Program-made: the position numbers and the translations under genes
Notes under the pieces: model-generated
Database searches by the model: none
Told to the model about the DNA's origin: nothing
Seen by the model: the letters and a program-made list of their open reading frames with translations, nothing else
From: Minisyncoccota bacterium
GTDB taxonomy: Bacteria > Patescibacteriota > Minisyncoccia > Phycocordibacterales > UBA9973
Length of the DNA stretch: 64,000 nucleotides
Direction of reading: 5' to 3'
NCBI GenBank assembly: GCA_028718635.1
Contig: JAQULK010000001.1
Location: 316,692-380,691 of the forward strand
Part shown: positions 362-56,620 of the stretch, piece after piece
Layout: each line of letters starts with the position of its first letter
Position numbering within the stretch: position 1 is the first letter of the stretch

Positions 362-3300
362 ATGAAAAATTTGGAAAAAAATTTTAAAGAAGGATATAAC
401 AGACTGAATAAAGCCCAAAAAGAAGCGGTAGATATTATTGATGGGCCGGTGATGGTGGTGGCGGGGCCGGGTACAGGCAAGACTCAGATATTGGCACTGC
501 GGATCGGTAATATTCTTCTTAAAACTGATATTAAGGCGGATGGCATCTTGTGTTTAACTTTTACAAATTCTGCTGTAAAAGCTATGCGCGAGCGTTTGCG
601 TAAATACATCGGGGTTGAGGCTTCAAAGGTAAAGGTTTCTACTTTTCATGGTTTTGGTATGGATATATTAGATAAATATTTCAACATATTAGGGCTTGAT
701 GAAAAACCTGAATTAATGAATGAACGGGATTCCGTGGCTCTCTGTGATGATATTTTGCAAAACAATGATTGGGAATATATTCGTCCGAGAGCCGATGTGT
801 CGCGATATTTCAAGGATTTAAAAGCGATGATTTCTTTCTTAAAACGCGAACGTATAAGCGGAGAGGATTTGAAAAAAGAAATAAACCGAGAAATTGAGAA
901 TATCAAAAGTGATCCTGCGAGTATTTCTTCTCGAGGAGAAAGCAAAGGCAAAATAAAAAAAGAGGTGGAAAAAAAGATCGAAGGACTTCATCGCACAGAA
1001 GAAGCAGTGAAATTTTATGCTCTTTATGAGGAAATAAAAAAAGAAAAGAATTTATTCGACTATGACGATATTTTGGAATCCTTGGTGCATATCGTGGAAG
1101 AATCCGAGGAAGCAAAAAATTATATCAAAGAAAGTTTTCTTTATGTTTTAATAGACGAACATCAGGATTCTAGCGGGGTGCAGAATGAGTTTTTGGAAAA
1201 AGTTTGGCAAGAAGAAGAAAAACCGAATATCTTTGTCGTAGGTGATGACAGGCAATTAATTTACGGTTTCGGAGGGGCATCCTTGCAATATTTTGAGAAT
1301 TTTAAAAATGCTTTTGGCAAAGCAAAATTAATTACCCTAGAAGAAAATTACCGTTCAACTCAAAAGATTTTAGATTCTTCGCATAATTTATTACAGAGTT
1401 CCATTTCTAAAGGAAAATTAAAGAGCAATCACAAAGAAAATCATGCATTACGTTTGATCGAAGCTTATTACCCTAGAGACGAAATTATTTTTTCAGCGTT
1501 GGAAATAAAGGAAAAGTTAAAGTCCGGATATGACTTTAATGATATAGCTATTTTGGTGCCAAAGAATCGCCAAGTGCGAAGCACTGTGGCTATATTAAAA
1601 GACATGGGTATTCCAGTGGCTGGTATGGAGAGTGTTAATTTTTTTGATGTGCCTGAAACTATTTCTTTTTTTAGGATTTTGAAAATAATCGCTAATCCCA
1701 ACAATGGCGACTCTTTAGCTTTATCTTTTTTTGATAAACTGTCTGGAATTTCTCCGCTTCAGGCGCATGAATTTTTAAAAAATAATAAAATGCGCGAGTT
1801 TTCTTTGTTGAATATAGTTGAGGAGAAAAGTGATTTATTTCATGATTCAAACGAAGTAAATATTTGGATTCAAAAATTGAAATCATGGCTTGATTCTTCA
1901 ACAGAACCTTTATATTTCTTTATTCAAAGAGTAGGTACGGAATTCTTGCTTGACACCGCCAAGGATCACCGAGATCTTATGACGAGGATAGAGGTTTTGC
2001 GAACCGTTCTTCATTTAGTTTTGGCGGAGATAGAAAAAAATCCAAAACTGACTTTGGCAGAATTTCTAAGCTTCTTTGGGCGTATAGAAAATTATGGAGA
2101 AAATATACCACTGGCAATATTTACTCCGAATGAGGGGGTGAAAGTTTTGACCTTGCATGGTTCAAAAGGTTTAGAGTTCGACTATGTCTGGATAGCGCAC
2201 ATGGACGAAAAGTCTTTTTCGGGAAGCAAGCGCGAGGGATTTGCTTTGCCCGCGTCCATAAAAGAAAAAATTGAAAAAAAAGATGAAATAGTGATGAAAC
2301 GCGAATTATACGTGGCCATTACTCGCGCGAAGAGATTTTGCACTATTTCTTATGCTTTAAAATCATACACCGGAGGCGATCAAGAGCTTGCGCATATCAT
2401 TGCCGACCTTGAAGATAATTTTGAAAAACAAAGTGCTGAAGAAACAGAAAAAATAATTTTAAAACGCGACAAGCTTGCATACGTAGAAAATAAAATGATA
2501 GCAGAAGAAAGTCTTGATTTGAAAGGTTTGGTGAAGTTGGTTTCTCGGGATTATGAAGACCGCAAAATATCGGTTTCTCTCCTTAATAATTTCTTTGAAT
2601 GTCCATGGAAATGGTATTTTAGGAATTTATTGCAATTGCCAGAATCAAAAAGCGAGAGCTTAGAATTTGGAAATATCGTTCATGGATCTATAGATGCAAT
2701 TTTAAAGCTTGGCAAGAAACCGAGCGAAGAAGAATTAAAAAATATAATTTCACACCAAGTGCGAAAATCAAATTTTGGAAATGATAGGAAGCAAAAAGAA
2801 TTATTCAATCTCGCTTTAAAAATAATTTCGAGGTGGACGAAATCAAGGCTTCCGGAGATAGGCAAAAATAGGGAAAATGAACAGAGTGTTTCTGTCAACG
2901 ACGACAGATTTCCAAATTTGAATATTTATGGAAAGATAGATTTGATAGAAAATCTACCTGCCCGACACGCTGACGCGAGTCATGCGGGCGGGGAAGGGAA
3001 CAACGTTCGCGTTACAGATTTTAAAACTGGAGGTGTTAGAAAAAAATCCGATATTGAAAAGATAAACGAGGAGGGGAGGATGAGTGATTATATGCGCCAA
3101 CTCGCCATGTATTCGTATTTGCTTAATAAGAATCCAAAATGGAAGAAAAATGTAGTAGAGTCAAAGCTTGAATTCGTGGAAGCATCAAACACGAAGGATA
3201 TTTTTTATAGTACCGTAATAAACAAAGAGCAGATCGACCTCTTGATCAACGATATTAAAGATTATGATAATTTAGTTAAAAATGGCAAATGGGTAGATAG

Positions 3301-3376
3301 ACCTTGTAATTTCAAATCTTATGGTAAAACAAATGCAATTTGTGAATACTGTAAAATGGCAGGGATCTATAAATGA
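362..3376 (+). CDS. Single-chain UvrD/PcrA-family SF1 helicase fused to a C-terminal RecB-like PD-(D/E)XK nuclease with four Cys (AddAB-like function in one polypeptide)
   Basis: N-terminal Walker A GPGTGKT with the UvrD motif order; C-terminal CPWKWYF ... CNFKSYGKTNAICEYC cysteine cluster typical of AddB/Cas4-type Fe-S nuclease domains. Confidence 0.75.
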   Translation: MKNLEKNFKEGYNRLNKAQKEAVDIIDGPVMVVAGPGTGKTQILALRIGNILLKTDIKADGILCLTFTNSAVKAMRERLRKYIGVEASKVKVSTFHGFGMDILDKYFNILGLDEKPELMNERDSVALCDDILQNNDWEYIRPRADVSRYFKDLKAMISFLKRERISGEDLKKEINREIENIKSDPASISSRGESKGKIKKEVEKKIEGLHRTEEAVKFYALYEEIKKEKNLFDYDDILESLVHIVEESEEAKNYIKESFLYVLIDEHQDSSGVQNEFLEKVWQEEEKPNIFVVGDDRQLIYGFGGASLQYFENFKNAFGKAKLITLEENYRSTQKILDSSHNLLQSSISKGKLKSNHKENHALRLIEAYYPRDEIIFSALEIKEKLKSGYDFNDIAILVPKNRQVRSTVAILKDMGIPVAGMESVNFFDVPETISFFRILKIIANPNNGDSLALSFFDKLSGISPLQAHEFLKNNKMREFSLLNIVEEKSDLFHDSNEVNIWIQKLKSWLDSSTEPLYFFIQRVGTEFLLDTAKDHRDLMTRIEVLRTVLHLVLAEIEKNPKLTLAEFLSFFGRIENYGENIPLAIFTPNEGVKVLTLHGSKGLEFDYVWIAHMDEKSFSGSKREGFALPASIKEKIEKKDEIVMKRELYVAITRAKRFCTISYALKSYTGGDQELAHIIADLEDNFEKQSAEETEKIILKRDKLAYVENKMIAEESLDLKGLVKLVSRDYEDRKISVSLLNNFFECPWKWYFRNLLQLPESKSESLEFGNIVHGSIDAILKLGKKPSEEELKNIISHQVRKSNFGNDRKQKELFNLALKIISRWTKSRLPEIGKNRENEQSVSVNDDRFPNLNIYGKIDLIENLPARHADASHAGGEGNNVRVTDFKTGGVRKKSDIEKINEEGRMSDYMRQLAMYSYLLNKNPKWKKNVVESKLEFVEASNTKDIFYSTVINKEQIDLLINDIKDYDNLVKNGKWVDRPCNFKSYGKTNAICEYCKMAGIYK

Positions 3377-3394
3377 TGTGCTATAATATCTTTA

Positions 3395-3505
3395 AATCGC
3401 GAAACATAAACTTTTCTTCGGTACGGAATTTTTGAAGCTTAAAAATTCCTGAAGTTCTCGGCTCGCCAGCCTCGAAACCCCTTCGAAAAGTTATGTTTCG
3501 CGATT
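3395..3505 (+). repeat. Family B inverted-repeat element, copy B1 (TIR aatcgcgaaacataaactttt / aaaagttatgtttcgcgatt; internal palindrome ggatttttt-gaagctt-aaaaaatcc)
   Basis: Near-identical core at 49356..49466 and 52798..52911. Confidence 0.8.
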
Positions 3506-3536
3506 CACAATATTATAAGTTTAATTTAATTTTTAT

Positions 3537-3776
3537 ATGTCAGACGAAAAAGGAGAAAATTTAGTACACGGTTTTGATATTCATGCAGGTGATCATCAGC
3601 ATGCATTAAGTTATATAGAAAGTCATATGAGTCCAGAACAATTAAAAGATATGGTTCACAGGGCAGAGAGCGGGCATAGCGCTCATTTTATGGTTACTCA
3701 CAATGGAGTACAGTCAAATTTCAAATTAATACATCAAGACGGAAAGTTAGTAATTCATCATGCGCATCACATTTAA
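3537..3776 (+). CDS. Small histidine-rich protein (13 His in 79 aa), hypothetical, possible metal-binding; stop overlaps pheS start (TAATG)
   Basis: ORF with translational coupling to pheS; composition only. Confidence 0.45.
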   Translation: MSDEKGENLVHGFDIHAGDHQHALSYIESHMSPEQLKDMVHRAESGHSAHFMVTHNGVQSNFKLIHQDGKLVIHHAHHI

Positions 3777-4504: not shown

Positions 4505-6322
4505 ATGAAAATTTCTTATAATTGGCTAAAAAGTTATATTCCTGAAGTATCTAATACAGATAATCTTGTAGATATTTTTAACTATCATCTTTGCGAAGTT
4601 GAAGGCCTAGAGAAAAAAGGTAATGATACTGTTTTTGATATAAATATTTTACCAAATCGCGCGCATGATCTGCTTTCCCATCGGGGCGTTGCTCGCGAGC
4701 TTGCTTCACTTTTAGATATAAAATTTATTGATCCGATTTTAAAATATAAAATTCCCGAATCAAAACCAACTAAATTAATAAAAGAAATCAAAAGCGATAA
4801 ATGCCGCCGTTATATGGGGCGGGTTATTCGCAATGTGAAAGTGGCGCCTTCGTCAGAATGGGTCGTGAAGTATTTGGAATCGATGGGGCAGAGAAGTATA
4901 AATAATATTGTGGATGCCACAAATATTGTGATGTTTGACTGTGGACAGCCGGCGCACGTTTTTGATTTAGAAAAAGTAAAAGATTTGAGATTGCAGGTGC
5001 GATATGCTGAAAACGGAGAGAAAATTACTTTACTTGGCGGAGGAGAAAAAATCATGAATGATACTATGATGGTTATCTCTGATGATAAAGGTAATTCGCT
5101 TGATATTGCTGGTATAAAAGGCGGAACATATGCCGAACTAAATCAAAACACCACGGAGATAATTTTAGAATGTGCGAATTTTGACCCCACGAGTGTCCGC
5201 AAAACTGCTCAAGCATTGAATATTTTTACTGATGCGCGAAAACGTTTTGAAAATGATTTGTCGCCGGAGCTGGCAGAGTATGGAATAAAAGAATTGTCTG
5301 CGCTTATTTATGAAATGTGTCCAAACGCTATATTTGAGGATATCGTGGATATTTATCCGGAAAAACAAAAAGAAAGAAAGCTTTCTTTTTCCGCTGAAAA
5401 AATTTCAAAGATTTTAGGTTTAGATGTATCTATTGAGGAGATAGAGAATATATTAAAGAGATATAATTTTACATATGTAGAAGATGGTGGACGGTTTGAA
5501 ATCGTAGTGCCACCGATGCGTCTTGACCTAGTAATCGAGGAAGATATGGCTGAGGAGATCGGCAGAATTTTGGGTTACGACAAAGTCAAAGCGCAAATGC
5601 CTGAAATTGGTTTTCAACCAAAGCAAAATGAGACTTATTTCAAAATATCTTTTGCGAGAAATAAATTGCTAGAAGAAGGATATTCTGAAGTGATGACAAG
5701 CAGTTTCTGCGATGAGGGAGAGGTGGAGGTCTTGGCTTCTGCTTCTGATAAAAATTTCTTAAGAACGAATCTGACAGATGGATTGAAAGAGAGCTTAAAA
5801 TTAGATCAAGTGAATGCCCCATTGCTTGGAATAGAAAAAGTTAAAATTTTTGAGATTGGAACAATTTTCAAGAAAAGCGGAGAAGAGATGCACGTTGCTT
5901 ACGGAGATAAAAAAAGAATAAAAGAAATGAAATTGAAAGATTTTCTACCACCTCGCCCTTCGGGCACTCCTCTTCAGAAAGGAGGAGAAGAATTTCCTCC
6001 CCGCCTTGATAAGGAGGGGGCAGGGGGTGGTAAATTTAAAATGTGGTCACTGTTTCCTTTTATTGCGCGTGATATCGCTGTCTGGGTGCCGGAAAATGTC
6101 CAGAACCAGGAAGTAGCAAAAATTATAAAAGAAAACGCGGGGGGAATGGTGGTTCGCGGACCGGAACTTTTTGATGAATTTAAAAAGGGAGATAAAATAT
6201 CTTATGCTTTTAGATTAGTTTTTCAATCTTATGAAAGAACTTTGAATGACCAGGAAGTAAACGATATTATGACCAAAATAACTGATAAAATAAAGGAAAA
6301 TGTTGATTGGCAAGTGAGGTAA
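4505..6322 (+). CDS. pheT: Phenylalanyl-tRNA synthetase beta subunit (short form) carrying an in-frame palindromic element insertion
   Basis: MKISYNWLKSYIPE N-terminus typical of PheT; B3/4 and B5 regions; adjacent to pheS. Confidence 0.88.
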   Translation: MKISYNWLKSYIPEVSNTDNLVDIFNYHLCEVEGLEKKGNDTVFDINILPNRAHDLLSHRGVARELASLLDIKFIDPILKYKIPESKPTKLIKEIKSDKCRRYMGRVIRNVKVAPSSEWVVKYLESMGQRSINNIVDATNIVMFDCGQPAHVFDLEKVKDLRLQVRYAENGEKITLLGGGEKIMNDTMMVISDDKGNSLDIAGIKGGTYAELNQNTTEIILECANFDPTSVRKTAQALNIFTDARKRFENDLSPELAEYGIKELSALIYEMCPNAIFEDIVDIYPEKQKERKLSFSAEKISKILGLDVSIEEIENILKRYNFTYVEDGGRFEIVVPPMRLDLVIEEDMAEEIGRILGYDKVKAQMPEIGFQPKQNETYFKISFARNKLLEEGYSEVMTSSFCDEGEVEVLASASDKNFLRTNLTDGLKESLKLDQVNAPLLGIEKVKIFEIGTIFKKSGEEMHVAYGDKKRIKEMKLKDFLPPRPSGTPLQKGGEEFPPRLDKEGAGGGKFKMWSLFPFIARDIAVWVPENVQNQEVAKIIKENAGGMVVRGPELFDEFKKGDKISYAFRLVFQSYERTLNDQEVNDIMTKITDKIKENVDWQVR

Positions 6323-20829: not shown

Positions 20830-22817
20830 TATATTAAAACATAGTCTATAGTTTTTTTCTCCAAATCAACTGCTTTTACTTTTATTTTAACATGATCGCC
20901 AAGACGATATCTTTTTCCTTGCCTACCGGCAGGCGGGTTCTTTTTTTGCCCGACCAATTCTAGTTTTTTTTCATTAAAAATATAAAAGTCGTCTTTCATA
21001 TCTCGTACTCGTACGAGGCCTTCGCATTTTGTACCTATCTCTTCAACATACATACCCCACTCAGTTATGCCACTTATCACTCCATCAAAACTTTCCCCTT
21101 TGCGTTTAGACATATATTCCACTTGTTTGTATTTTATGGATGCTCGTTCGGCTTCCGTTGCCCGTTTTTCTTGTTCAGAAGCGATTATGACAATTCTTTC
21201 ATATTCTAATAATTTTTCTTTTAATTTATTATTTGTCACTTTTTTCTTTGCAAGATAATCACTCAATAATCTATGGATCATAATGTCTGGATATCTTCTG
21301 ATTGGGGAAGTGAAATGCGTGTAATATTCAAAAGCTAAGCCATAATGGCCGATATTTTTTGTAGAATAAGTTGCTTTGGCCATAGACCTGATCACGGCGC
21401 GATGTACCGTATCACTCATTATTTTGTTTGGGTTTTTGCTTTTTAAATCTTCAAGTAATTTATTTATTTCATGAGTTGGAATTATCCCGTCTTGTAATGA
21501 TACTTTGTGTCCCAAGCTTCGTAAGAAAAATGCGAGATCAGCCATTTTCTCTTTTGATGGTTCATCATGGATGCGATAAATGGAAATATCTTTTGAGAGA
21601 ACTTTTGCCACTTTTTTATTTGCCAGCAACATAAACTCTTCAACTAGTCTATTGGAATCACCTCGTTCTTTTTTTATTACTTTTATCGGGGTACCCTTAT
21701 CATCTAAAATAAATTTAACTTCTTCTTGGTCAAGTGATATAGCGCCTTTAGCAAATCTTTCTTTGGTTAATTTTTTTGCTAAATTATTCAAAATGGAAAG
21801 CTCTTTATGTAGGGGAGCATTTTCATTTTTTATTGCCTCGCCCGTAGGGCTATGGCCGAGGGCTTTTTCTGCTTCTTCATATGTAAATCTTTTTTTAGAA
21901 TGTATTACAGTGCGACCAAACCATTCATCTTTTATTTCTGCGTTTTTATTAATAATAAATACTGCGCTCATGGTGAGTCGATCTTTGTGGGGGACTAAAC
22001 TGCACAAATCATTCGAAAGAGTTTCCGGGAGCATCGGTATTGTTCTGTCTACTAGATAAACCGAGGTTCCTCTTGTGCGGGCTTCTTCATCTAAAGCGCT
22101 GCCAGGTCTCACATAGTGAGACACGTCTGCTATATGGATGCCGACTTCATACACCTCACCCCCTAGCCCCCTCTCCTTATTAAGGAGAGGGGGGAGAATA
22201 CGAAAAGAAATTGCGTCATCAAAATCTTTTGCATCCTCTGGATCAATCGTAAAAGTTAGTGTTTTTGTGAAATCCCGACGTCCTTCATAATCACTTTTTC
22301 TTATTCCTTCGCGCTTTATTTTTTTTGCTTCTTCTTCTACTTTATTTGGAAGTTCTGAATCAAAACCTTTTTCTATCGCAATTGCATTCATCTCGGTAGT
22401 GTTGTCACCAGGTTTTCCCAAGATTTTTATTACTTTTCCAATGGGAGCTTTTTGCGCGTCTTTCCATGAAACTATTTCCACAAAAACTTTTTGCCCGATT
22501 TTTGCGTTATTCAAATTTTCTTTTGGAATCAAAATATCCGTGTACATTTTCGTGTCATCTGTTTTCAAAAAAACTACATTTTTTTCTTGTTCCAAAACTC
22601 CGGTAAAACGCATTTTTGCGCGAGAAATTATTTTTACTACTTCGGCAGTCTGGCGTTTCTGGCTTTTTGGGTGGAGAAGTATCTCCACCATATCTCCGTG
22701 AAGCGCAGTATTCAAATGCTTAAAATCAATTTCCGGATCTTGTTCTTTATTTTTTCCTATTCCTACGGCTACATATCCCGTGCCTTTTGAGGAGATAGAA
22801 ATAATGCCCTCGGCCAT
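20829..22817 (-). CDS. rnr: Ribonuclease R / RNB-family 3'-5' exoribonuclease with a C-terminal S1 domain; contains an in-frame palindromic insertion
   Basis: RNB domain motifs, S1 at the C-terminus; start chosen at MAEGIISI to avoid overlap with the divergent promoter. Confidence 0.85.
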   Translation of the reverse strand: MAEGIISISSKGTGYVAVGIGKNKEQDPEIDFKHLNTALHGDMVEILLHPKSQKRQTAEVVKIISRAKMRFTGVLEQEKNVVFLKTDDTKMYTDILIPKENLNNAKIGQKVFVEIVSWKDAQKAPIGKVIKILGKPGDNTTEMNAIAIEKGFDSELPNKVEEEAKKIKREGIRKSDYEGRRDFTKTLTFTIDPEDAKDFDDAISFRILPPLLNKERGLGGEVYEVGIHIADVSHYVRPGSALDEEARTRGTSVYLVDRTIPMLPETLSNDLCSLVPHKDRLTMSAVFIINKNAEIKDEWFGRTVIHSKKRFTYEEAEKALGHSPTGEAIKNENAPLHKELSILNNLAKKLTKERFAKGAISLDQEEVKFILDDKGTPIKVIKKERGDSNRLVEEFMLLANKKVAKVLSKDISIYRIHDEPSKEKMADLAFFLRSLGHKVSLQDGIIPTHEINKLLEDLKSKNPNKIMSDTVHRAVIRSMAKATYSTKNIGHYGLAFEYYTHFTSPIRRYPDIMIHRLLSDYLAKKKVTNNKLKEKLLEYERIVIIASEQEKRATEAERASIKYKQVEYMSKRKGESFDGVISGITEWGMYVEEIGTKCEGLVRVRDMKDDFYIFNEKKLELVGQKKNPPAGRQGKRYRLGDHVKIKVKAVDLEKKTIDYVLI

Positions 22818-22909
22818 AGACCTACGGGCGAGGTCTTGCCGTATGTGTTGTTTATTTAAATTATTTTTCACCTTATAAATATAGCATAATTTAAACAACC
22901 ATAGAGTGA

Positions 22910-23607: not shown

Positions 23608-23916
23608 ATGTTAAAAATAAGACTTCAGAGAATAGGAAGGAAAAATGATCCGGCGTTTCGGGTTGTTTTGACTGATTCAAAAAATAGCACCAAAAGCGGA
23701 CGATTTTTAGAAATTGTCGGAACTTATAATCCAAAAGCCGGAGAGACAAAATTCGAGGCTGAAAGAATAAAATATTGGATGTCAAAAGGCGCGAAGCTTT
23801 CCGACACAATGCACAATTTTTTGGTGTATCAAAAAGTTATTGAAGGCAAGAAAGTAAATGTTTTGCCTAAAAAGAAACCAACTGTTAAAAGAAAGGAATT
23901 GAAAGCCAAAAGATAA
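23608..23916 (+). CDS. rpsP: Ribosomal protein S16
   Basis: MLKIRLQRIGRKNDPAFRVVL. Confidence 0.92.
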   Translation: MLKIRLQRIGRKNDPAFRVVLTDSKNSTKSGRFLEIVGTYNPKAGETKFEAERIKYWMSKGAKLSDTMHNFLVYQKVIEGKKVNVLPKKKPTVKRKELKAKR

Positions 23917-23917
23917 T

Positions 23918-23968
23918 TCACCTCACCCGGCCTTTGGCCACCCTCTCCTTAATAAGGAGAGGGGCTGG
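23918..23968 (+). repeat. Family D nested palindromic element, copy D1 (outer cacctcaccc...gggggtgaggt, inner ccctctccttaataaggagagg)
   Basis: Inverted copy at 45137..45198; related in-frame copies inside pheT, smc-like, rnr and dnaG. Confidence 0.85.
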
Positions 23969-24077
23969 GGGTGAGGTCTTATTGCTACAAAATTTTAATT
24001 AGTTATAATTACAGGTATAGCAGTATGTCAGGTCGTAACACTGCAAGTTTAGTAAAAGATTAAATTAAAAAAACATT

Positions 24078-24445: not shown

Positions 24446-24530
24446 AAAAAGAGCGAATACAAAAATTTTCTGGCACGCAAGAAGGGTCCAGTGCGTGCAG
24501 GCGAAAACTTTTGTATTCGCTCTTTTTTTG
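24446..24530 (+). terminator. Long hairpin (19-bp stem aaaaagagcgaatacaaaa / ttttgtattcgctcttttt, inner hairpin gcacgc...gcgtgc) followed by a T7 tract; terminator or attenuator between the KH gene and trmD
   Basis: Direct reading of the sequence. Confidence 0.45.
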
Positions 24531-32199: not shown

Positions 32200-34053
32200 A
32201 TGAACTCTCCTGTCCAACAAATTAAGGAGAGGCTATCAATTGAAGAAGTAGTCTCTTCTTATATAAAGCTAGAAAAGGCAGGCGCAAACCTAAAAGCAAA
32301 ATGCCCGTTTCATAACGAAAAAACTCCTTCCTTTTTTATTTCCCCTGATCGAGGCACTTACTATTGTTTTGGATGCGGGGTAAAGGGCGATATTTTTACT
32401 TTCGTAGAAGAATTTGAAGGTCTTGATTTTAGAGGAGCTCTTAAATTGCTTGCCAGCAGAGCGGGAATTGTTTTGGAATCTTACAATCCGAAAGATCAAA
32501 GAAATCAGAGCGAAAAAGAAAGATTATATGAAGTCATGGAAGAAGCGACTGTTTTTTTTGAGAAGAATTTAAAAGAAAATCCGGAAGTTTCATCTTATCT
32601 AAAAAATAGGGGGCTGAATGATGAAAGTATAAAAAATTTCCGTATTGGTTTTGCCTTATTGGAGTGGCGTAAACTTTATGATTATTTAAAATCTAAAAAT
32701 TTTTCTGACAGTGAAATAGAAAAAGCAGGACTTGCAAAGACCCCCTCCGCCGTTGGCACCTCCCCCTTGATAAGGGGGAGGCTGGGTGGGGGTCTGTATG
32801 ACAGATTTCGTGGACGAATAATGTTTCCTATCTCGGATTCTAGCGGACGGGTTATTGCTTTTTCCGGAAGAATCTTTGTTGATGACGGAAAGTCTGCGAA
32901 ATACCTAAATAGCCCTGAAACTTCTATCTTTAATAAATCCGCTGTTCTTTTCGGCATAGATAAAGCTAAAGACCCCATTCGGAAAAATGACTTTTCTATC
33001 TTAGTTGAAGGTCAAATGGATTTGATTTTATCTCACCAAGCAGGATTTAAAAATACCGTAGCTTCCTCGGGGACAGCCATGACTGATTCAGTATTGTCAA
33101 AAGAAAATATTATAAATAACCTAGGACTTATCACCAGATTGTCAAAGAACATGGTCCTTGCTTATGATGCTGATAGAGCGGGGGTGAGTGCGACTAACCG
33201 TTTTGCTAAGATTGCATTATCTTTGGGTATGGATGTAAAGGTGGCAGATATACCCGAGGGAATGGATCCGGCTGATTTGATTTCCCGTGGCTATAGCCAA
33301 ATGGGCGAGGCAAAAGTTGGAGTGGATGCCTGGCGGGAAGCGATAAGGAATTCGAAACATTTTATCGAATTTATGCTGCTGAGGATCTTAAAAGATACTA
33401 ATTCTGACAATAGAAAGGCTGGCAGGGAAATAAAGGAACGCTTGCTTCCTTTTGTGAATGAGATAGAAAGCTCCATAGAAAAATCACATTTCATTACATT
33501 AATCAGTAATAAATCAGGGATTCCTGAAAATGCCCTGATGGAAGATTTGAAAAAAGTAGAAACTGAATTTAAGAATGAAAAAGAAGATATCAAAATCGCC
33601 AAAGAAAATATAGAGAAAAAATTAAGAAAAGACCCGATCGAGCGAAGGCTTTTAGGTATAGCTTTTTGGCAAGAGAGTCTGTCGGACGTTGGACGTCCGA
33701 AATTCGGACGTCCAACGTCCGACAAAACGTCCGACAAACCTAGAATTGATCCAGAATTGATTTTTAAAAAATTAGAAAAAGCAAAAGAAAATGTTAAAGA
33801 AAAATATAAAGACAGGAGAGAGGATTTGATTTATGAGGTAGAAGAATTTTACTCAAATAATGAAAATCTGGAAAAAGACGTAGAGGAAATGCTGCTCAAT
33901 ATAGAGGAAGAATATTTAAATGAAGAATTTAGCATTAAGATGATAGAATACCAGAATTGCAAAGATAAAATAGAAAAGGAAGAAATTTTTAAAAAAATAA
34001 GTGAAATAACAAAAAGAAAAGAAGATATTAAAAATAGTCGTATAAGAAAATAA
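32200..34053 (+). CDS. dnaG: DNA primase carrying two in-frame palindromic insertions
   Basis: Zn-ribbon CPFHNEKTPSFFISPDRGTYYCFGCG; TOPRIM EGQMDLI. Confidence 0.9.
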   Translation: MNSPVQQIKERLSIEEVVSSYIKLEKAGANLKAKCPFHNEKTPSFFISPDRGTYYCFGCGVKGDIFTFVEEFEGLDFRGALKLLASRAGIVLESYNPKDQRNQSEKERLYEVMEEATVFFEKNLKENPEVSSYLKNRGLNDESIKNFRIGFALLEWRKLYDYLKSKNFSDSEIEKAGLAKTPSAVGTSPLIRGRLGGGLYDRFRGRIMFPISDSSGRVIAFSGRIFVDDGKSAKYLNSPETSIFNKSAVLFGIDKAKDPIRKNDFSILVEGQMDLILSHQAGFKNTVASSGTAMTDSVLSKENIINNLGLITRLSKNMVLAYDADRAGVSATNRFAKIALSLGMDVKVADIPEGMDPADLISRGYSQMGEAKVGVDAWREAIRNSKHFIEFMLLRILKDTNSDNRKAGREIKERLLPFVNEIESSIEKSHFITLISNKSGIPENALMEDLKKVETEFKNEKEDIKIAKENIEKKLRKDPIERRLLGIAFWQESLSDVGRPKFGRPTSDKTSDKPRIDPELIFKKLEKAKENVKEKYKDRREDLIYEVEEFYSNNENLEKDVEEMLLNIEEEYLNEEFSIKMIEYQNCKDKIEKEEIFKKISEITKRKEDIKNSRIRK

Positions 34054-50557: not shown

Positions 50558-51367
50558 ATGAAAAGTAAAAGGATTTCCTATTTAACCAACATAAGCAACG
50601 GCTGGTTCTTAGAGGATGAGTATCTGATTGGGTTACTTCGTGGTATCGGTTACGAAGTAAAAATATGCCATCCTCTGCATCCGGATTACGACACGGATGC
50701 GTTCGTAATTAGAAACGTCTGGCCTTCTCCTTCAGAATACAGGGAGGAGTGGGAGAAAGTTAAAAAGAGAATTGTCGAATCCGGCATCCCGTCGTATAAT
50801 CCTTTGACGGGGAAAGGAGATAATGCCGGCAAAAATTATCTTGTCGAGTTGTACCTGGATGGATATCCAGTCATTCCCTCCATCGACATGGTGGAGTATT
50901 TGGATATCCTCCCTGAACCTGAGACTGGGTTGTATTACATCAAGCCGAAAATCGGCTGTGATGGCTCAGGGGCATGGAAAAGTACTTGCCCATGGCAAAC
51001 AGGGAAGTTGGTTGATGATTCTATAATTCAGCCCTTTCTTAAATTTGTCTCAGAGCCGTCGTTTTTCTTTCTTGACGGCAAGTTCCTTTACGCGATCGAC
51101 ATGCCCAATAGGATTGCGGACACTGATATAGAACTGTACAAGCCGACCCTAAAAGAGTTGTTTTGGGCGGCTCAGTTTGTTCAGTGGAACAATTTATCTT
51201 ACGGTATTCAACGTATCGATGCCGTGAGGACAAAAAGTGGTGAGCTTCTGCTCACCGAAGTAGAAGATATCGAAGAATTTTTGTATCTCTTCAACCTCCC
51301 TCAGAAAAAGAGGGAAGAGATTGCGAACGCACTTCTGCGCTCGATAATTAAGAATTGTTGTCTTTAG
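50558..51367 (+). CDS. Small ATP-grasp-like protein of unknown substrate located inside the polyamine cluster
   Basis: YYIKPKIGCDGSGAWK resembles the ATP-grasp phosphate-binding loop; LLTEVEDIE acidic site. Confidence 0.4.
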   Translation: MKSKRISYLTNISNGWFLEDEYLIGLLRGIGYEVKICHPLHPDYDTDAFVIRNVWPSPSEYREEWEKVKKRIVESGIPSYNPLTGKGDNAGKNYLVELYLDGYPVIPSIDMVEYLDILPEPETGLYYIKPKIGCDGSGAWKSTCPWQTGKLVDDSIIQPFLKFVSEPSFFFLDGKFLYAIDMPNRIADTDIELYKPTLKELFWAAQFVQWNNLSYGIQRIDAVRTKSGELLLTEVEDIEEFLYLFNLPQKKREEIANALLRSIIKNCCL

Positions 51368-51539
51368 TACCCCACACTTGTGTGTGGATGGTGCAGAGCA
51401 ACGTATCATTCACACGCAAGTGAGCAGTAGGATTTTTCCACGCTCACTTGTTTTTATTTTAGGTACAATTTTTATTGACATTAGGGTACTAAGTAGTAAA
51501 CTATTCTTATTATTATTTTATAATTTTTTTTTAAAAAAT

Positions 51540-52790
51540 ATGGCTAGAGTACTTGTAATAGGTTCTGGAAATGTTGGCAGAGTGGGCTTGCATAAAATGG
51601 CTCAATATCCGGAGATTTTTTCTGACATCCATGTAGTCAGCAGGACCACTAAAAATTCGGAAGCGGTCCAGGCTTCAATTTTAAAGAAAACACGCGGGAA
51701 GGTAAAAATAAATATTCACCAAGGAGATGCAGGGGACAAGAAATTCTTACTAGAGCTTTTCAAAAAAGTCAGGCCTGATATTTTAGTGCATTTTGGGCTG
51801 TCTTACGACAATTTAGTCATTATGGATGTATGTTTGGAAATGGGCGTCCACTACATTGACACCTGTTGTTATGAAGATCCAAAAAAATACGGCTTCTCTT
51901 ATAAATTGCAATTGGCCAAAGATAAAGCTTTCAAAGAAAAAGGATTGCTGGCTGTTACTGGTTTAGGTTTTGCTCCGGGAGTTACAAACATTTTTGCCGC
52001 TTATGCGCGAGATTATATTTTTGATAAAATAGACACTATTGACATTATCGACTGTAACGGTGGTTCTAAAGACAAGAAAATTAAATTTGCTCCGAACTTT
52101 AATCCAGAGATTAATTTACGCGAATTAATTTTACCAATTCATTTTTGGGAAAAAGGGAAGTGGCAGAAACGCGGGCGTTTGATAGATGAAGACGCAGCTT
52201 TCTTTGAATTTGATTTTCCAGAGACTGGCAAATTTACGCCATACTTGATGTATCACGAGGAGTTAGAAACTCTAGTCACTCGCATTCCCCATCTAAAAAG
52301 AGCAAGATTTTGGATGACTTTTTCACCAGTCTACCTTTCATATTTGAGAGTGTTGTTTGATGTTGGAATGACTAGAATTGACCAAGTCGAATACAACGGC
52401 TTTCCGGTTATTCCAGTAAAATTTTTGAAAGCGCTCTTGCCTACAGGTGATGATTTTAATAAAGGTTATAAAGGCAAGACCATCGCTGGGGACATTATTT
52501 CTGGAACCAAAGACGGTAAGAAAAAAGTAGTTTACATCTACAATGTTACTGATCATCACAAGGCCTTTTTAGAAACTGGTGGTAATGGGATAGGGTACAA
52601 TACAGCTGTTCCTACAGTTGCTTGCGCCAAACTAATGCTGGAAGGGAAATGGGCAGGTAGTGGAGTAAAAGTTCCTGAGGATAAAACTCTCGATTCAAAA
52701 ATATTTTTGGAAGAAATGTTCAAGCTCGGTTTGCCTTGGGTCGTTAAAAAAATGAAAGATTTACCAGCGCCTTTAAAAAAGAATTATTAA
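51540..52790 (+). CDS. Carboxy(nor)spermidine dehydrogenase (saccharopine-dehydrogenase fold)
   Basis: MARVLVIGSGNVGRVGLHKMAQ Rossmann N-terminus typical of CASDH/CANSDH; length 416 aa. Confidence 0.75.
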   Translation: MARVLVIGSGNVGRVGLHKMAQYPEIFSDIHVVSRTTKNSEAVQASILKKTRGKVKINIHQGDAGDKKFLLELFKKVRPDILVHFGLSYDNLVIMDVCLEMGVHYIDTCCYEDPKKYGFSYKLQLAKDKAFKEKGLLAVTGLGFAPGVTNIFAAYARDYIFDKIDTIDIIDCNGGSKDKKIKFAPNFNPEINLRELILPIHFWEKGKWQKRGRLIDEDAAFFEFDFPETGKFTPYLMYHEELETLVTRIPHLKRARFWMTFSPVYLSYLRVLFDVGMTRIDQVEYNGFPVIPVKFLKALLPTGDDFNKGYKGKTIAGDIISGTKDGKKKVVYIYNVTDHHKAFLETGGNGIGYNTAVPTVACAKLMLEGKWAGSGVKVPEDKTLDSKIFLEEMFKLGLPWVVKKMKDLPAPLKKNY

Positions 52791-52797
52791 TTAACTT

Positions 52798-52911
52798 TGA
52801 ATTACAAAACATAAACTTTTCTTCGGTACGGATTTTTTGAAGCTTAAAAAATCCTGAAGTTCTCGGCTCGTCAGCCTCGAAACCCCTTCGAAAAGTTATG
52901 TTTCATAATTC
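52798..52911 (+). repeat. Family B element, copy B3; ends immediately before the ATG of the decarboxylase gene at 52912
   Basis: Core shared with B1 and B2. Confidence 0.8.
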
Positions 52912-54165
52912 ATGATAAATATCATGTCACATTGCAATCCGGAAGAAAGACAAGTTGAGCCTTGGGTTAACGAAGAAGGTTTTCAAAAATTGAATTTAAA
53001 AAATGTTGAAACTCCTTGCTATATTGTAAGCGAGGGGAATCTTGAGCGTAATTTAAAAATTCTCGAAAAAATACAGAAAGATTTAGGAGTAAAAATTTTA
53101 ATTGCCCTTAAATGCTTTTCGATGTATTCTGTCTTTCCGCTCATAAGAAAATATTTAGCGGGGACAGAAGTGAGTTCAGTAAATGAAGCGCGTCTAGGAT
53201 ATGAAGAATTCGGCAAGGAAAATCATATTTTTTCTCCATCCTACACCGATAAAAATATCAAAGAATATATAAAATACGGCAACCATATATCTTTCAACTC
53301 TTTTTCTCAATGGAACAAGTTCAAAAAAACCATCAAAAATTCCCTCGGTCGTAGCCCTACGGGTGAGACCAAGAAAAAAGTGTCTTGCGGTATCCGAGTA
53401 AATCCAGAACACAGCGAAGGAACCATGCCTATGTATGACCCTTGTGTGCCCCGTTCGCATCTAGGCGTGACTTTAGCGAATTTTGAAACAAATAACATGG
53501 AAGGGATAGAAGGATTGCATTTTCACACTCTTTGTGAAAATGGCGCCGATAAGTTTGCGCGCACTCTGAAAGCTTTTGAAGAAAAGTTTGGAAAATTTTT
53601 AGGAAAGATGAAATGGGTAAATTTCGGAGGCGGGCATCTTCTTACCAATTCCGATTATGACCTTGATTTGCTTTATAAGGTCGTTTCTGATTTTAAAAAA
53701 AGATACCCGCACTTGACGGTCTATTTCGAGCCGGGAGAAGCAGTAGTGATGAATACCGGAGGTCTAGTGGCTTCTGTGATAGACATTTTTAATAACGGAG
53801 TAGATATTGCCGTTCTTGATGTGTCAGCGGCGTGTCATATGCCGGATGTTTTAGAAGTGCCGTATTTGCCGAAAATTGTGGGTGCGAAACCTATAACTGG
53901 TAATTGTAAAATTGAGGGAGAAAAAAATGTTTATAAGCTAGTGGCGCCGACGTGTTTGACTGGAGACGTTATCGGTTTTTATTCTTTTCCTAATAAATTA
54001 AAAATCGGAGACAAGATAATTTTTCTCAATATGGCGATTTATACGATGGTAAAGAATAATACCTTTAATGGAGTCAATTTGCCGAATATCACCAAGATGG
54101 ACAAGAAGGGGAAAATAAAGGTCTTGAAAAGATTTGGGTATGAGGATTTTAAAAGAAGGCTATAG
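52912..54165 (+). CDS. nspC: Carboxy(nor)spermidine decarboxylase (NspC family)
   Basis: TPCYIVSEGNLERNLKIL ... ILIALKCFS ... GGGHLLT pattern of NspC. Confidence 0.78.
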   Translation: MINIMSHCNPEERQVEPWVNEEGFQKLNLKNVETPCYIVSEGNLERNLKILEKIQKDLGVKILIALKCFSMYSVFPLIRKYLAGTEVSSVNEARLGYEEFGKENHIFSPSYTDKNIKEYIKYGNHISFNSFSQWNKFKKTIKNSLGRSPTGETKKKVSCGIRVNPEHSEGTMPMYDPCVPRSHLGVTLANFETNNMEGIEGLHFHTLCENGADKFARTLKAFEEKFGKFLGKMKWVNFGGGHLLTNSDYDLDLLYKVVSDFKKRYPHLTVYFEPGEAVVMNTGGLVASVIDIFNNGVDIAVLDVSAACHMPDVLEVPYLPKIVGAKPITGNCKIEGEKNVYKLVAPTCLTGDVIGFYSFPNKLKIGDKIIFLNMAIYTMVKNNTFNGVNLPNITKMDKKGKIKVLKRFGYEDFKRRL

Positions 54166-54170
54166 AATTT

Positions 54171-54260
54171 TGAATTACGAAACTTGTCGCAGGCGCAGTT
54201 TTATAGAAGCATTGCGCAGGCTGACGAGCCGAGCATAGCAAAAAATCAGCAGATTTTTAT
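54171..54260 (+). repeat. Degenerate/rearranged family B fragment (gaattacgaaac ... ggctgacgagccgag)
   Basis: Shares the left TIR and inverted core with B3. Confidence 0.5.
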
Positions 54261-54358
54261 GTGTGCTGATATAAAACTTGTGCCAAGAAAGAGTTTCGTA
54301 ATTCAAAAGAACTTCTTATTTACTTTTTTGTATTTTGTACTACAATTAGAGTTGGTCC

Positions 54359-54654
54359 TGCATTTGATAGCTACTCTCTGACTTAGGTCAGAGGGAGGAA
54401 AGTCCGAACACATACTCCGACCTCGCGTCGGAGAAGCGTAGCGGGTAACGCCCGTCGTCCGTAAGGACAGAGTTGCGAACAGTGACGAACCGATTTAGTT
54501 CGGGTGAAACGGCAAAATACTTACGTGTGTGCAAGATCGTGCTCCCCGACCCAGGTCGGGGAGAGAATCGCTTGAGCTTGGGAGTAATTTCAGGCCTAGA
54601 TAAATTGCTATCGTCCGACTTCGGTCGGATCACAAAATTCGGCTTATAAATGCA
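54359..54654 (+). ncRNA. rnpB: RNase P RNA (bacterial type A, reduced length) with a compensatory P4 variant
   Basis: GAGGAAAGUCCGAAC paired with ACAAAAUUCGGCUUAUAAA (consensus GUCCGGGC / ACCCGGCUUA; GG->AA compensated by CC->UU); P1 tgcatttgatagc / gcttataaatgca. Confidence 0.75.
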
Positions 54655-54668
54655 AGACCACAAACATG

Positions 54669-54700
54669 AAAAATCCTCTCTAACGAGAGGATTTTTCTAT
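54669..54700 (+). terminator. Rho-independent terminator after rnpB (aaatcctctc-taac-gagaggattt + T tract)
   Basis: 10-bp perfect stem. Confidence 0.75.
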
Positions 54701-54956
54701 TTAATTCATAAAAACTTGCATTTTTTTTGCAAGTATGCTATACTGTTCCTTAGTGAGTGTAAGGTTTTATCTTACATTTTTCGTGAACAACATAAGTGCC
54801 GCAAAAAAACGCCGTAAGGTGTTTTTTTGTTTTGTCTTTTGTTTCAGTTAGGGTTGTCCTCGCTAGGTGCATAACTTGCTATAGTCAATTACATGAAAAG
54901 TAGTATAATTGTACTTGAAGACTTTTGCACTAAACAATTTAAAAGGAGGGAAGGAG

Positions 54957-55151
54957 ATGATTCCTCTACAATTTTGCAAGGGAGGTATTTTGTTACAGTG
55001 TAAATACTGTAACAAAATTTATCGTCTTGGAGAAAGGGTAAAGTTAAGCTTAGCTTTGGAATTAAAAGCTAGAGCTAATGGATGTACTTTCATAGAAGAC
55101 GATTGTGGGTGTAGTAAAGATACTGCCACCCTAATCGCTGTATGGAGGTAA
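54957..55151 (+). CDS. Small Cys-rich protein (64 aa; CKGG..CKYCNKIYRLGERVKL ... C ... CGC) with a strong SD aggaggg
   Basis: SD 6-12 nt upstream; zinc-ribbon-like Cys spacing; terminator downstream. Confidence 0.45.
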   Translation: MIPLQFCKGGILLQCKYCNKIYRLGERVKLSLALELKARANGCTFIEDDCGCSKDTATLIAVWR

Positions 55152-55171
55152 ATCATTCTCAATTTTAGGCA

Positions 55172-55204
55172 AGGAGTTTGCATTTTTGCACGCTCCTTTT
55201 TTTT
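55172..55204 (+). terminator. Rho-independent terminator (aggagtttgca / tgcacgctcct + T8)
   Basis: Hairpin followed by TTTTTTTT. Confidence 0.6.
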
Positions 55205-55256
55205 CATATAAAGAATTCTAATTTGAGTAAATGCAATTTAATAGTACAATAGTTAT

Positions 55257-56177
55257 ATGCAATGGTTTTTCATAGCTTTAGCCGCACCATTTTTATGGGC
55301 TTTAGTAAATGTAGCTGATAAATATTTAGTCACTAGATTTTCTCACAAAGAAGAAGAACGTAGCTCTGGAGGACTGGTTCTTTTTTCTAGTCTTATTGGT
55401 ATTGTTATTTCTTTTTTAATTTGGATTTTTGTTCCAGATGTATTTAATATTCCAATACTGGATAAATTTTTGCTTTTTATTTGTGGTATTTTGACTATTA
55501 TTTGGATTGTTTTTTATTTATTTGCTTTGGAAATAGAAGAGATTTCTAATGTTGTGCCTTGGTTTCTCTCTGTTCCTATTTTTGGATATATATTAGGTTT
55601 TTTCTTTCTCGGGGAAAAGTTAACATTTAGTCAATTTATTGGATCTGGAATAATTTTTTTAGGTTTGATTTTAATTTCTTTGGATTTTAGTAAAGAAAAA
55701 AAATCTTTTAAACATAAGCCTGTATTTTATATGCTTTTTGCGTGCATAGCTGTAGCTATCTCTGGAGTTATTTTTAAATATGTTACGGTAGGAAATAATT
55801 TTTGGATTTCTTCATTTTGGGAATATTTAGGTTTAGGGGTGTCTGGTTTGTTTATTTTTCTATTTATTCCACATTACAGGAAATCTTTTTTGCATATGAA
55901 TAGAACAGGAGGGTATACGATTTTTATCGTAAATACTGTAAGCGAATTTATGTCAATTATTGGCAACCTTTTAACCAGCTATGCATTGCTTTTAGCCCCC
56001 GTTGCTATGGTATTTTTAGTCGGAAGTTTTCAGCCTGCCATTGTGCTTTTTTTAACTATTTTTACTACTAAATTTTTCCCTGAAATTACAAAAGAAAATT
56101 TAGAAAAACGCATGTTATTGCCTAAAATGGTTGCCATTGCGATTATGATTATCGGGAGTGTGATATTGTTTTTGTAA
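55257..56177 (+). CDS. EamA/DMT-family transporter (10 TM)
   Basis: Two repeats of 5 hydrophobic helices. Confidence 0.6.
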   Translation: MQWFFIALAAPFLWALVNVADKYLVTRFSHKEEERSSGGLVLFSSLIGIVISFLIWIFVPDVFNIPILDKFLLFICGILTIIWIVFYLFALEIEEISNVVPWFLSVPIFGYILGFFFLGEKLTFSQFIGSGIIFLGLILISLDFSKEKKSFKHKPVFYMLFACIAVAISGVIFKYVTVGNNFWISSFWEYLGLGVSGLFIFLFIPHYRKSFLHMNRTGGYTIFIVNTVSEFMSIIGNLLTSYALLLAPVAMVFLVGSFQPAIVLFLTIFTTKFFPEITKENLEKRMLLPKMVAIAIMIIGSVILFL

Positions 56178-56182
56178 TAAAT

Positions 56183-56620
56183 ATGAAAACTATAATTAAC
56201 AAATGGCATTCGATTTTAGATATGCCGAAAAAAGATTTTGAATGGCACAAAGCTGATGTTTTGGAAGAGTTGAAAGAATTTGAGGAGACAAGGGGATTGA
56301 TAAACAAATGGAGCGAATTATCAGATATTGCTTATACATATACCAGAGCGCATTGGTCTGGGTATAAAACTATAGAATATCCTTTAAGTAAAATTAGTTT
56401 TTATTTAGGACTTTTATATATGTTTCCTAAATATTCTCTTCGCTGGAAATTTTATAGAGTTTTAGGGCAGAAAATTGATAAAAACGTAAAAATGACCGAG
56501 GTACGTAATCCTAGAAAGACATGGAAATTAAAACATATTGCCTTAAAATATAATCTAGATGAAGAACAATTTATAAATCAAGCAGAAAAATTAATGAAAA
56601 GGTGGGTGTTTTTGAAATAG
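56183..56620 (+). CDS. Hypothetical protein
   Basis: ORF only. Confidence 0.35.
   Translation: MKTIINKWHSILDMPKKDFEWHKADVLEELKEFEETRGLINKWSELSDIAYTYTRAHWSGYKTIEYPLSKISFYLGLLYMFPKYSLRWKFYRVLGQKIDKNVKMTEVRNPRKTWKLKHIALKYNLDEEQFINQAEKLMKRWVFLK

Follow-up and report, generated by a model that had tools for sequence, protein, structure and literature searches.

The stretch of DNA analyzed here, hereafter the window, spans 64,000 nucleotides of a Minisyncoccota bacterium and has a G+C content of ~37%. By pattern scan and BLAST, it belongs with the Parcubacteria-type Patescibacteria and is Nomurabacteria-like. It contains three full copies of a small palindromic repeat, which we refer to as family B, all on the + strand and each at a boundary between genes. 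B1 (3395–3505) lies between a UvrD/PD-(D/E)XK helicase-nuclease gene (362–3376) and a small ORF (3537–3776) that is followed by pheS. B2 (49356–49466) separates asd (48125–49213, minus strand) from a gene for a lysC-like amino-acid kinase (49466–50404, minus strand). As both of these genes are encoded on the minus strand, B2 is antisense to its neighbors; its 3' arm covers 1–3 nt of the lysC-like stop codon (49466–49468), an overlap already reported in the first-pass annotation of this DNA. B3 (52798–52912) occupies the spacer between a saccharopine-dehydrogenase-like gene (CANSDH-type, 51378–52790) and an Orn/DAP-decarboxylase-like gene (nspC-type, ORF 52912–54165). Judging from Pfam families only, these two genes may form the carboxynorspermidine pathway pair, and B3 is probably located within an operon, 12–24 nt upstream of the next start codon.

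B3 had been described as abutting an ATG at 52912. This codon does adjoin the element and is the first ATG of the nspC ORF, but it is probably not the real start. Homologues begin at the equivalent of 52924, where the predicted N-terminus reads MSHCNPEE in the window and MPHCNPEE in a close relative (L121), so translation probably starts 12 nt further downstream, at 52924. Elements that overlap stop codons and create spurious starts can therefore mislead gene calling, as they did for nspC here.

The three copies were recovered by several searches. A repeat search of the window returned them as one 126-nt family (3387–3512, 49348–49473 and 52792–52917; identity 100, 71, and 90%), and their alignment is gap-free across ~115 nt. 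Inverted arms were located at 3395–3414/3486–3505 in B1, 49356–49376/49446–49466 in B2, and 52798–52819/52891–52912 in B3. An nhmmer profile built from B1–B3 matched them with E-values of 4.5e-41, 1.5e-40, and 5.8e-39, in agreement with the three full copies proposed initially, and found no further same-strand match in the window above the E = 1e-4 significance level. A covariance model scored them at 120.1, 114.6, and 118.4 bits, respectively. Compared with dinucleotide shuffles, the predicted folds of B1, B2, and B3 have z-scores of about −6 on both strands, with none of 200 shuffles equaling them. The repeat and inverted-arm searches also found several other palindromic families in the window, as had been suggested.

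Patescibacteria form a separate lineage of ultra-small, host-dependent bacteria. A census with a 23-nt core pattern, in which assemblies were counted by accession prefix, matched at least 120 stretches in at least ~78 Patescibacteria (Parcubacteria-type) assemblies. Among the matches listed, all carriers are Patescibacteria MAGs, assigned to Nomurabacteria, Paceibacterota, Yonath-, Yanofsky-, and Vogelbacteria, Minisyncoccia, and Parcubacteria; some of the carrier assemblies among these matches are TPA bins with generic labels. The carriers span 36–47% G+C, and the core is near-invariant throughout. Copy density is approximately one per 20–100 kb, with the exact core occurring about once per 50–100 kb on long contigs. 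Such a distribution contradicts the idea that the elements are unique to the window, and the ~78 independent assemblies, together with the shuffle statistics, exclude an assembly artefact or chance.

The family is apparently undescribed so far. Rfam 15, applied at gathering thresholds to the whole window, identified RNase P RNA and two tRNAs only, and no B family. When B1 and B3 were searched at E-values up to 10, the best hits reached at most 21 bits, compared with thresholds of 40–245, which is chance level. The searchable literature on palindromic, MITE, or ncRNA motifs in Patescibacteria/CPR, and on the core sequence itself, yielded no earlier description.

For a detailed comparison, we used 126 copies, 123 from other genomes and the three from the window. 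In the predicted fold, each element is a Y-shaped three-way junction composed of an outer stem, P1, and two hairpins, P2 and P3. In B3, inverted-arm search and folding place the 5' arm of P1, TGAATTACAAAACATAAACTTTTC, at 52798–52821, followed by an internal loop TTC and a pair-forming GG (52822–52826), and the 3' arm, GAAAAGTTATGTTTCATAATTCA, at 52890–52912. Enclosed by these arms is a 61-nt core (52826–52886; 3421–3481 in B1 and 49382–49442 in B2) that is near-invariant across the 126 copies and reads GTAC-GGATTTTTT-GAAGCTT-AAAAAATCC-TGAAG-TT-C-[TC]-GGCT-CGTC-AGCC-[TC]-G-AAACCCC. Hairpin P2 (GGATTTTTT-GAAGCTT-AAAAAATCC, 52830–52854) is AU-rich and carries in its loop the HindIII site AAGCTT (52840–52845), which together with the core had been quoted correctly before. 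Hairpin P3 (TT-C-[TC]-GGCT-CGTC-AGCC-[TC]-G-AA, 52860–52881) is GC-rich; its 2 × 2 internal loop, UC/UC, is conserved, and its apex is a CGNC tetraloop. At the junction, the three helices are connected by the strands UAC, UGAAR (UGAAG in B3), and ACC. P1 comprises a median of ~26 Watson–Crick pairs (26.5); its sequence is copy-specific, with the two arms still complementary. Variants of P2 are few and compensatory (GGAAT/ATTCC in B1 and five others, C–G in L004, and A–U in L021), although its near-invariance is partly an ascertainment effect, since the search pattern lay in P2.

This Y structure is under selection, as covariation is seen in the stems, whereas the junction and loops do not vary. 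In the 126-row alignment, 81% of the cells are paired (65% in shuffles), with a covariation score of 0.371 (0.129 in shuffles); none of 500 shuffles reached any of the structure measures. The true alignment register outscores every slid register, and RNAalifold, run unguided, gives the same Y. Changes on both sides were found for all seven pairs of P3 and for 24 of the 26 pairs of P1, and the arms of one copy pair far better with each other than with arms from different copies (pairing score 35.8 versus 14.7). The outer arms had been interpreted as TIRs, but they are not conserved terminal repeats of the transposase type. They differ between copies and stay complementary, and because the arms covary around a conserved center, they constitute a stem, the reverse of the organization of a classical MITE.

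A structured RNA used by the host would also fit these data: P1 and P3 covary strongly, the junction, the internal loop, and the other loops are fixed, and the core is near-invariant in at least ~78 assemblies. Such an RNA would form a three-way junction in 3'-UTRs or intercistronic regions, co-transcribed with the upstream gene, for the most part vertically inherited, and maintained by purifying selection. It could bind a conserved Patescibacteria protein or serve as a signal for processing or stability, such as an RNase III site or a block to 3'-exonucleases, and it may descend from a mobile element that became domesticated. We regard this explanation as possible but rather unlikely. In its favor, G·U pairs outnumber A·C mismatches on the element + strand (207 versus 145), and in the RNAalifold model a G-to-A variant at the base of P2, present in 29 copies, changes a G·U pair to A–U. 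On the other hand, 145 A·C mismatches are a frequent occurrence, and the G·U share hardly differs between sense (0.64) and antisense (0.60) contexts, so the bias follows the orientation of the element and is a property of the element, not of host transcription. The lack of a matching Rfam family also counts against a host RNA.

Two types of known folded element were compared with the core and rejected. Hammerhead ribozymes share a core of C3 U4 G5 A6 N7 G8 A9 ... G12 A13 A14 and a UH cleavage site. The B core (...GGUA|C-[hairpin]-CUGAAG-[hairpin]-GAAAC...) is reminiscent of type III hammerheads in its three-way junction and in its CUGA.G and GAAA-like strands. However, the nucleotide at "G12" behaves as half of an ordinary covarying base pair (C–G to U–A in 43 copies, G–C in 11), three nucleotides stand in the place of the single A9, "C3" is paired within P2, and no Rfam ribozyme model matched B1 or B3 even at E-values up to 10. 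The register is therefore wrong, and we give a self-cleaving ribozyme of this type almost no credence. Integron attC sites have conserved R''/R' ends (RYYYAAC/GTTRRRY) and a variable center, and lie downstream of cassettes beside an integrase. The B elements present the reverse pattern, with a fixed center and variable ends, and they flank core housekeeping genes, which speaks against attC.

The window contains two further elements that share the Y architecture. B' (54168–54308, minus strand) is a complete 141-bp sister element, recognized by the covariance model with 26 bits (E 1.7e-4), in the spacer that separates nspC from the RNase P RNA gene. The interval 54171–54260 had been taken for a rearranged fragment of B; it instead lies within this intact element of opposite orientation. 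B' has the same termini as B (GAATTACGAAAC...GTTTCGTAATTC), the same outer framework, and a B-like P3 (GGCTCGTCAGCC), but it differs in P2 (ATCAGCA...TGCTGAT). A counterpart with 91% identity is found at L052:1539–1679.

The second element lies inside tgt, where a core fragment had been proposed. The gene does harbor a relative of B, which is not a fragment but a complete 116-bp sister element in frame (45849–45964, + strand; 45.2 bits, E 6.9e-10), aligned by the covariance model from end to end. It has a Y architecture and P3 as in B and a G+C content of 55%. Alignment to solved TGT structures indicates that it adds ~35 residues (aa 212–246) absent from them. The same coding form is found in frame in L020 (sense) and twice in one gene in L051 (antisense). 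A protein search with the 46-aa insert peptide of tgt, intended to count further in-frame insertions, yielded no candidate with sufficient 5-residue words in common. The sister subfamilies retain a hairpin at the P2 position, with a sequence different from that of B. In 123 of 126 copies, the core of B has stops in each of the three forward frames. Of the four copies of the coding form, by contrast, three are open in 4–5 of the six frames and the second L051 copy in one. In-frame insertion of a palindrome into genes is thus a feature of the open-frame sister subfamily and not of B proper, with its forward stops in all frames, and it adds inserts of 11–35 residues to enzymes such as TGT. The presence of this form within coding sequences, in both orientations, counts against a host RNA.

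In line with the initial description of a multi-copy small palindromic family at gene boundaries, 116 of the 126 copies are intergenic. The core lies at a median of 36 nt from the upstream gene, and the stop codon or last codons of that gene are covered by the outer stem in 60% of cases. The element is found next to the stop codons of housekeeping genes, or overlapping them; these neighbors are unrelated and diverse and include efp, ftsZ, fusA, recA, rplL, smpB, and others. We found no transposase family and no recurrent partner gene among 118 adjacent genes. Three of these neighbors are Phage_integrase-family genes.

Orientation had been described as independent of the neighboring genes. This is correct within the window, where B2 is antisense, but family-wide there is a bias in tandem contexts, with 45 sense and 16 antisense copies (p = 0.0003). 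The sense bias and the placement where genes such as efp, ftsZ, fusA, recA, and rplL end would fit a host RNA; conversely, a quarter of the copies, including B2, are antisense to their genes. Part of this ~3:1 bias may be explained by the three-frame forward stops, since a sense insertion that clips the native stop would still end translation within the element. In the informative cases, orientation also follows the base composition of the strands. The + strand of the element is the local G-rich strand in 45 of 53 informative copies, as judged from noisy 8-kb skews, and orientation tracks the G-rich strand over the adjacent genes (41:7 versus 1:4), a comparison limited by small numbers and the same noisy skews.

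The location directly 3' of stop codons and the prevalence of convergent over divergent gene pairs (37 versus 7) would also be compatible with intrinsic terminators, possibly bidirectional, with a conserved apex. An intrinsic terminator consists of a GC-rich stem followed at once by a U-tract on the transcribed strand. Some outer stems of B are indeed A-tract/T-tract pairs, T-runs of at least five occur at the 3' end of the hairpin in 20–25% of 125 copies versus 10% in the background, and the window site orthologous to the L050 copy holds another long A/T-flanked hairpin. Three quarters of the copies, however, have no U-tract, and no T-run follows B1, B2, or B3. The frequency of T-runs is independent of the presence of a gene end upstream (0.25 with and 0.18 without), and the stems next to the tails are AU-rich, 25–30 bp long, and non-canonical. 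Moreover, B3 lies inside a probable operon, just before the next start codon, and a consensus terminator and promoter scan of 49200–54800 predicted none in B2, B3, or B'. A terminator function is, in our view, very unlikely.

The ends of the elements bear on whether they are classical MITEs, that is, deletion derivatives of insertion sequences with conserved terminal inverted repeats and target-site duplications. Small size, the lack of ORFs, multiple copies, inverted arms, and presence/absence polymorphism all fit this description, and some of the copies, from several genomes, have the termini GAATYRCGAAAC(TC) in common. One pair of filled and empty sites (L052) shows a possible 7-bp duplication, GTTTGCT. 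Nevertheless, the termini of most copies differ and covary, and the conserved sequence is internal. The search for target-site duplications that the first-pass annotation recommended gave a negative result: the longest flanking direct repeats are distributed as in shuffled-pair controls, a comparison compatible with duplications of 2–4 bp. There is no transposase beside the copies, and because the terminal motif in the window is confined to the ends of B elements, the window holds no longer element with the same ends. A classical MITE is accordingly very unlikely. Stems that contain the host stop codon had suggested that the outer stem originated from an inverted target duplication, an idea that proved unsupported: the overlaps are short and AT-rich, and chance or stop replacement can explain them.

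The comparison with relatives that had been proposed showed that sites are variously empty, filled, flipped, or swapped. In L121, whose genes are 80–85% identical to those of the window at the nucleotide level, the region syntenic with 48773–56620 has elements in the same three spacers. Its copy between asd and lysC is flipped relative to the window and has another P3 subtype than B2 (GGCTCGCCGTCGCTCGCC); its copy between the CANSDH-type gene and nspC is closest to B2 (94%) and not to its positional partner B3; and an ordinary B with the same termini stands at the site of B' in the window. The CANSDH|nspC spacer is empty (0–40 nt) in at least 12 more distant relatives, and in L127 and L138 it contains an unrelated ~150-nt palindrome in opposite orientations. 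Further pairs of filled and empty sites include one that is filled in L052 and empty in L077, with flanks 88–89% identical. The element is therefore gained, lost, flipped, and exchanged as DNA between close relatives, even if the empty sites could in principle be deletions.

Similarity between copies is also distributed unevenly. Copies elsewhere are 91–98% identical to those of the window. In particular, the window copies are 96–98% identical to L026 (Nomurabacteria, MFUV01), including at stem positions that are variable elsewhere, while in MFUV01, the only assembly whose genes could be compared, those in locus L050 are just 67–76% identical to those of the window. Many genomes have discrete subtypes in common: P3 haplotypes are shared by, for example, 25 copies in 18 assemblies and 13 copies in 11, with several per genome. 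The outer arms are more alike within assemblies than between them (0.45 versus 0.37; p = 5e-9). Elements with these properties could mark strains and trace DNA exchange among uncultured Patescibacteria.

One orthologous spacer shows a different behavior. Between a gene ending in ...RLSRLTK* and a thioredoxin-like gene starting with MNHLLEFYGTECPHC, five genomes carry B in the same orientation, with flanks 70–80% identical, and a sixth carries another Y element. The outer stems of the five copies are wholly different and compensated, and their P3 variants differ. Either repeated insertion or long persistence under selection for the structure and core would explain this spacer. Because of this site, and because the core is fixed over 36–47% G+C, we continue to take an RNA used by the host, or a domesticated element, seriously as an alternative. 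Same-site flips of orientation between close relatives, the absence of the element from the CANSDH|nspC spacer of most relatives, discrete subtypes common to several genomes, and stems that vary elsewhere yet are identical between distant genomes all argue against a host RNA.

Taken together, covariation, turnover at the DNA level, shared subtypes, placement at gene ends, and a coding sister form suggest that family B is probably a non-autonomous palindromic insertion element resembling those of Rickettsia (RPE) and Neisseria (Correia), selected as a folded single strand and mobilized by an enzyme acting in trans. Several observations weigh against an insertion element. Target-site duplications do not exceed chance, neither a transposase nor a recurrent gene lies beside the copies, and a search of 2.9 million viral contigs gave no exact match to the core of B or of the coding form. 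In addition, the termini are not conserved, unlike those of a MITE, the copy number appears modest, and both the near-invariant core and the site filled in five genomes would be expected of a vertically inherited host RNA as well. The insertion-element and host-RNA readings are compatible and do not exclude each other.

As an insertion element, B would spread as DNA within and between genomes. It may be recognized through its folded single strand, either as ssDNA during replication or transformation or possibly as a transcript, by an enzyme supplied in trans, and ectopic gene conversion between copies could contribute to turnover. Once inserted, it would be co-transcribed as a 3'-UTR or intercistronic hairpin and may be tolerated, or be mildly useful, at the 3' ends of genes. 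A process specific for single strands fits these data, given the bias of the + strand towards the G-rich strand and the G·U bias that follows the element. More tentatively, the 61-nt junction could be, instead of inert selfish DNA, a structured signal with a dedicated and conserved partner in Parcubacteria-type Patescibacteria, either as a new class of host RNA module at gene 3' ends, serving processing, stability, or protein binding, or as the structure recognized by a new hairpin-guided ssDNA system linked to mobility or replication. The invariant junction, the covarying stems, the shared subtypes, and the natural series of filled, empty, flipped, and swapped sites offer a handle on the mechanism.

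Among described systems, RPE (Ogata et al. 2000, 2002) are close in form and placement. They are palindromic repeats of 105–146 bp in the reduced genome of host-dependent Rickettsia, with a long stem-loop and no genes of their own; as far as the account in PMC2229807 goes, no transposase or duplication is established for them, and they are either intergenic or fused in frame into housekeeping genes as tolerated extra peptides. Family B is likewise palindromic, of similar size, gene-less, found in intergenic and in-frame forms, and hosted by a reduced genome. It differs in belonging to another phylum, in dividing its intergenic and coding forms between separate subfamilies, and in its fold, a three-way junction whose core is invariant while the outer stem covaries freely. 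Moreover, B occurs in at least ~78 species-level genomes of several candidate lineages, whereas RPE are known from one genus. By this likeness, we consider B a putative functional analogue of RPE rather than a member. How such inserts are tolerated has reportedly been tested with an RPE-containing guanylate kinase. RPE-like behavior in Patescibacteria suggests a general consequence of lifestyle or a shared mechanism.

The Correia or NEMIS elements of Neisseria comprise a 155-bp and a 107-bp species, one of which has stops in all frames and is nearly always intergenic, while the other has an open frame and is found fused to genes (PMC2229807). The same split is seen between the intergenic B form with stops and the open coding form. 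Correia elements are co-transcribed as hairpins able to act on neighboring mRNAs through RNase III, and they have conserved 24–26-bp TIRs, TA duplications, and an IHF site (PMC2229807). In contrast, B has variable termini, a conserved center, and no detected duplication. REP/BIME sequences are associated with RAYT transposases (IS200/IS605-like Y1) and include forms with GTAG/CGTC tags; individual REPs are simple hairpins of 20–40 nt with a terminal tetranucleotide tag and hundreds of copies (PMC3733652). They resemble B as structure-defined repeats at gene 3' ends, without duplications, that are recognized as a folded single strand (putatively so for B) and whose orientation is tied to strand biology, as the 45 of 53 B copies on the G-rich strand illustrate. 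However, B is ~115 nt long, Y-shaped, and of low copy number, and its CGTC is the loop of P3 rather than an end tag.

ERIC/IRU, RUP, YPAL, and other MITE-like repeats of enterobacteria and streptococci are co-transcribed imperfect palindromes of 100–170 bp (PMC2229807, PMC3184786). Like B, they show filled and empty sites between relatives and occasional in-frame fusions; unlike B, they are restricted to genera or families and defined by conserved ends, and in none of them has an outer stem been described that covaries while the three-way junction it encloses stays invariant. By analogy, then, B appears to work like RPE and Correia elements while standing outside every described family; what is new is the fixed three-way junction with a free outer stem, together with the breadth across Patescibacteria. 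A more distant parallel is provided by the mobile GC clusters and palindromic repeats of AT-rich organelle genomes, such as those of yeast mitochondria and Volvox (PMC8811140, PMC2670323). These organellar repeats are shorter than B and unrelated to it in sequence and fold, but in both cases short, GC-richer palindromic modules proliferate in compact AT-rich genomes, coding regions included.

The palindromic B elements of about 115 bp also exist in a longer form of about 140 nt, which occurs in other Patescibacteria assemblies (loci L012, L069, L090, L094, L106, L111, L114, L116 and others). In this subtype the outer stem is extended and carries a conserved 6 × 6 internal loop (ACTC-TTTCTC-GGCA ... 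TGCC-TTCAAC-GAGT). The termini, GAATYRCGAAAC, are common to the longer subtype, the B copies of the window and B', the sister element in opposite orientation between nspC and the RNase P RNA gene.

The third window copy, B3, bears directly on gene annotation. At window 52912–52926, the first ATG of the nspC-like ORF (52912) arises at the end of the B3 3' arm, and homologues begin at the equivalent of 52924; automatic gene calls would therefore add four spurious residues (MINI). This ORF, which is Orn/DAP-decarboxylase-like, belongs to a cluster at 48125–54165 together with asd and the genes for a lysC-like kinase and a saccharopine-dehydrogenase-like protein. Judged from Pfam families only, that gene content fits an aspartate-semialdehyde-dependent route to polyamines (the carboxynorspermidine route).

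The window also contains a second family of palindromes, TTCATCCCGTTAGAAGC...GCTTCTAACGGGA, at 47944–48097 and 49209–49360 as well as at 239–381 and 14423–14458. The first two copies lie on either side of asd, are each about 150 nt long and are 81–85% identical. Since the copy at 49209–49360 abuts B2, the 252-nt spacer between asd and lysC consists of two different elements placed back to back.

Palindromes were also located within coding sequences. Three such inserts lie in tgt: the in-frame Y element, a coding sister of B (45849–45964), and two in-frame copies of a GC-rich 45-nt hairpin, CCCCGTACGGAGCCGCAGGCTCTCGTTCGGGG (46042–46086 and 46378–46422), each of which adds 11 residues at a site corresponding to a gap in solved TGT structures. 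A family of CCCCCTTAATAAGGGGGAGG-centred palindromes (5993–6032, 16980–17019, 22152–22192, 23908–23975, 32754–32793 and 45145–45207) has its first copy in pheT, where it translates as ...PPRPSGTPLQKGGEEFPPRLDKEGAGGG... and appears to be an in-frame insertion. A further hairpin family, CCTCGCCCGTAGGGCTATGGCCGAGGG, is found at 21826–21868, 22803–22833 and 53336–53378, the last copy falling within the nspC-like coding sequence, and a 617-aa ORF (32200–34053) contains a perfect 22+22-nt palindrome, TGTCGGACGTTGGACGTCCGAA / TTCGGACGTCCAACGTCCGACA, at 33680–33724.

The same gene-end site is filled by unlike long hairpins in different genomes. After the gene ending at 24440, the window has an A/T-flanked hairpin with a 25-bp stem and a GC apex (24446–24527), whereas the orthologous spacer of Nomurabacteria MFUV01 (L050) holds a B element in exactly the same place. 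In two other lineages, the spacer between the saccharopine-dehydrogenase-like gene (CANSDH) and nspC contains an unrelated palindromic element of about 150 nt (L127, about 2850–3000; L138, about 2815–2975), the two being reverse complements of one another.

Finally, the segment of about 310 bp carrying the RNase P RNA gene (rnpB, window 54355–54662) has opposite orientations in the window and in its close relative L121: L121 4350–4661 matches window 54703–54396 on the reverse strand, with collinear flanks on both sides. A B-type element directly adjoins the inverted segment in both genomes, and a hairpin with a 13-bp stem follows rnpB in the window (54668–54697).
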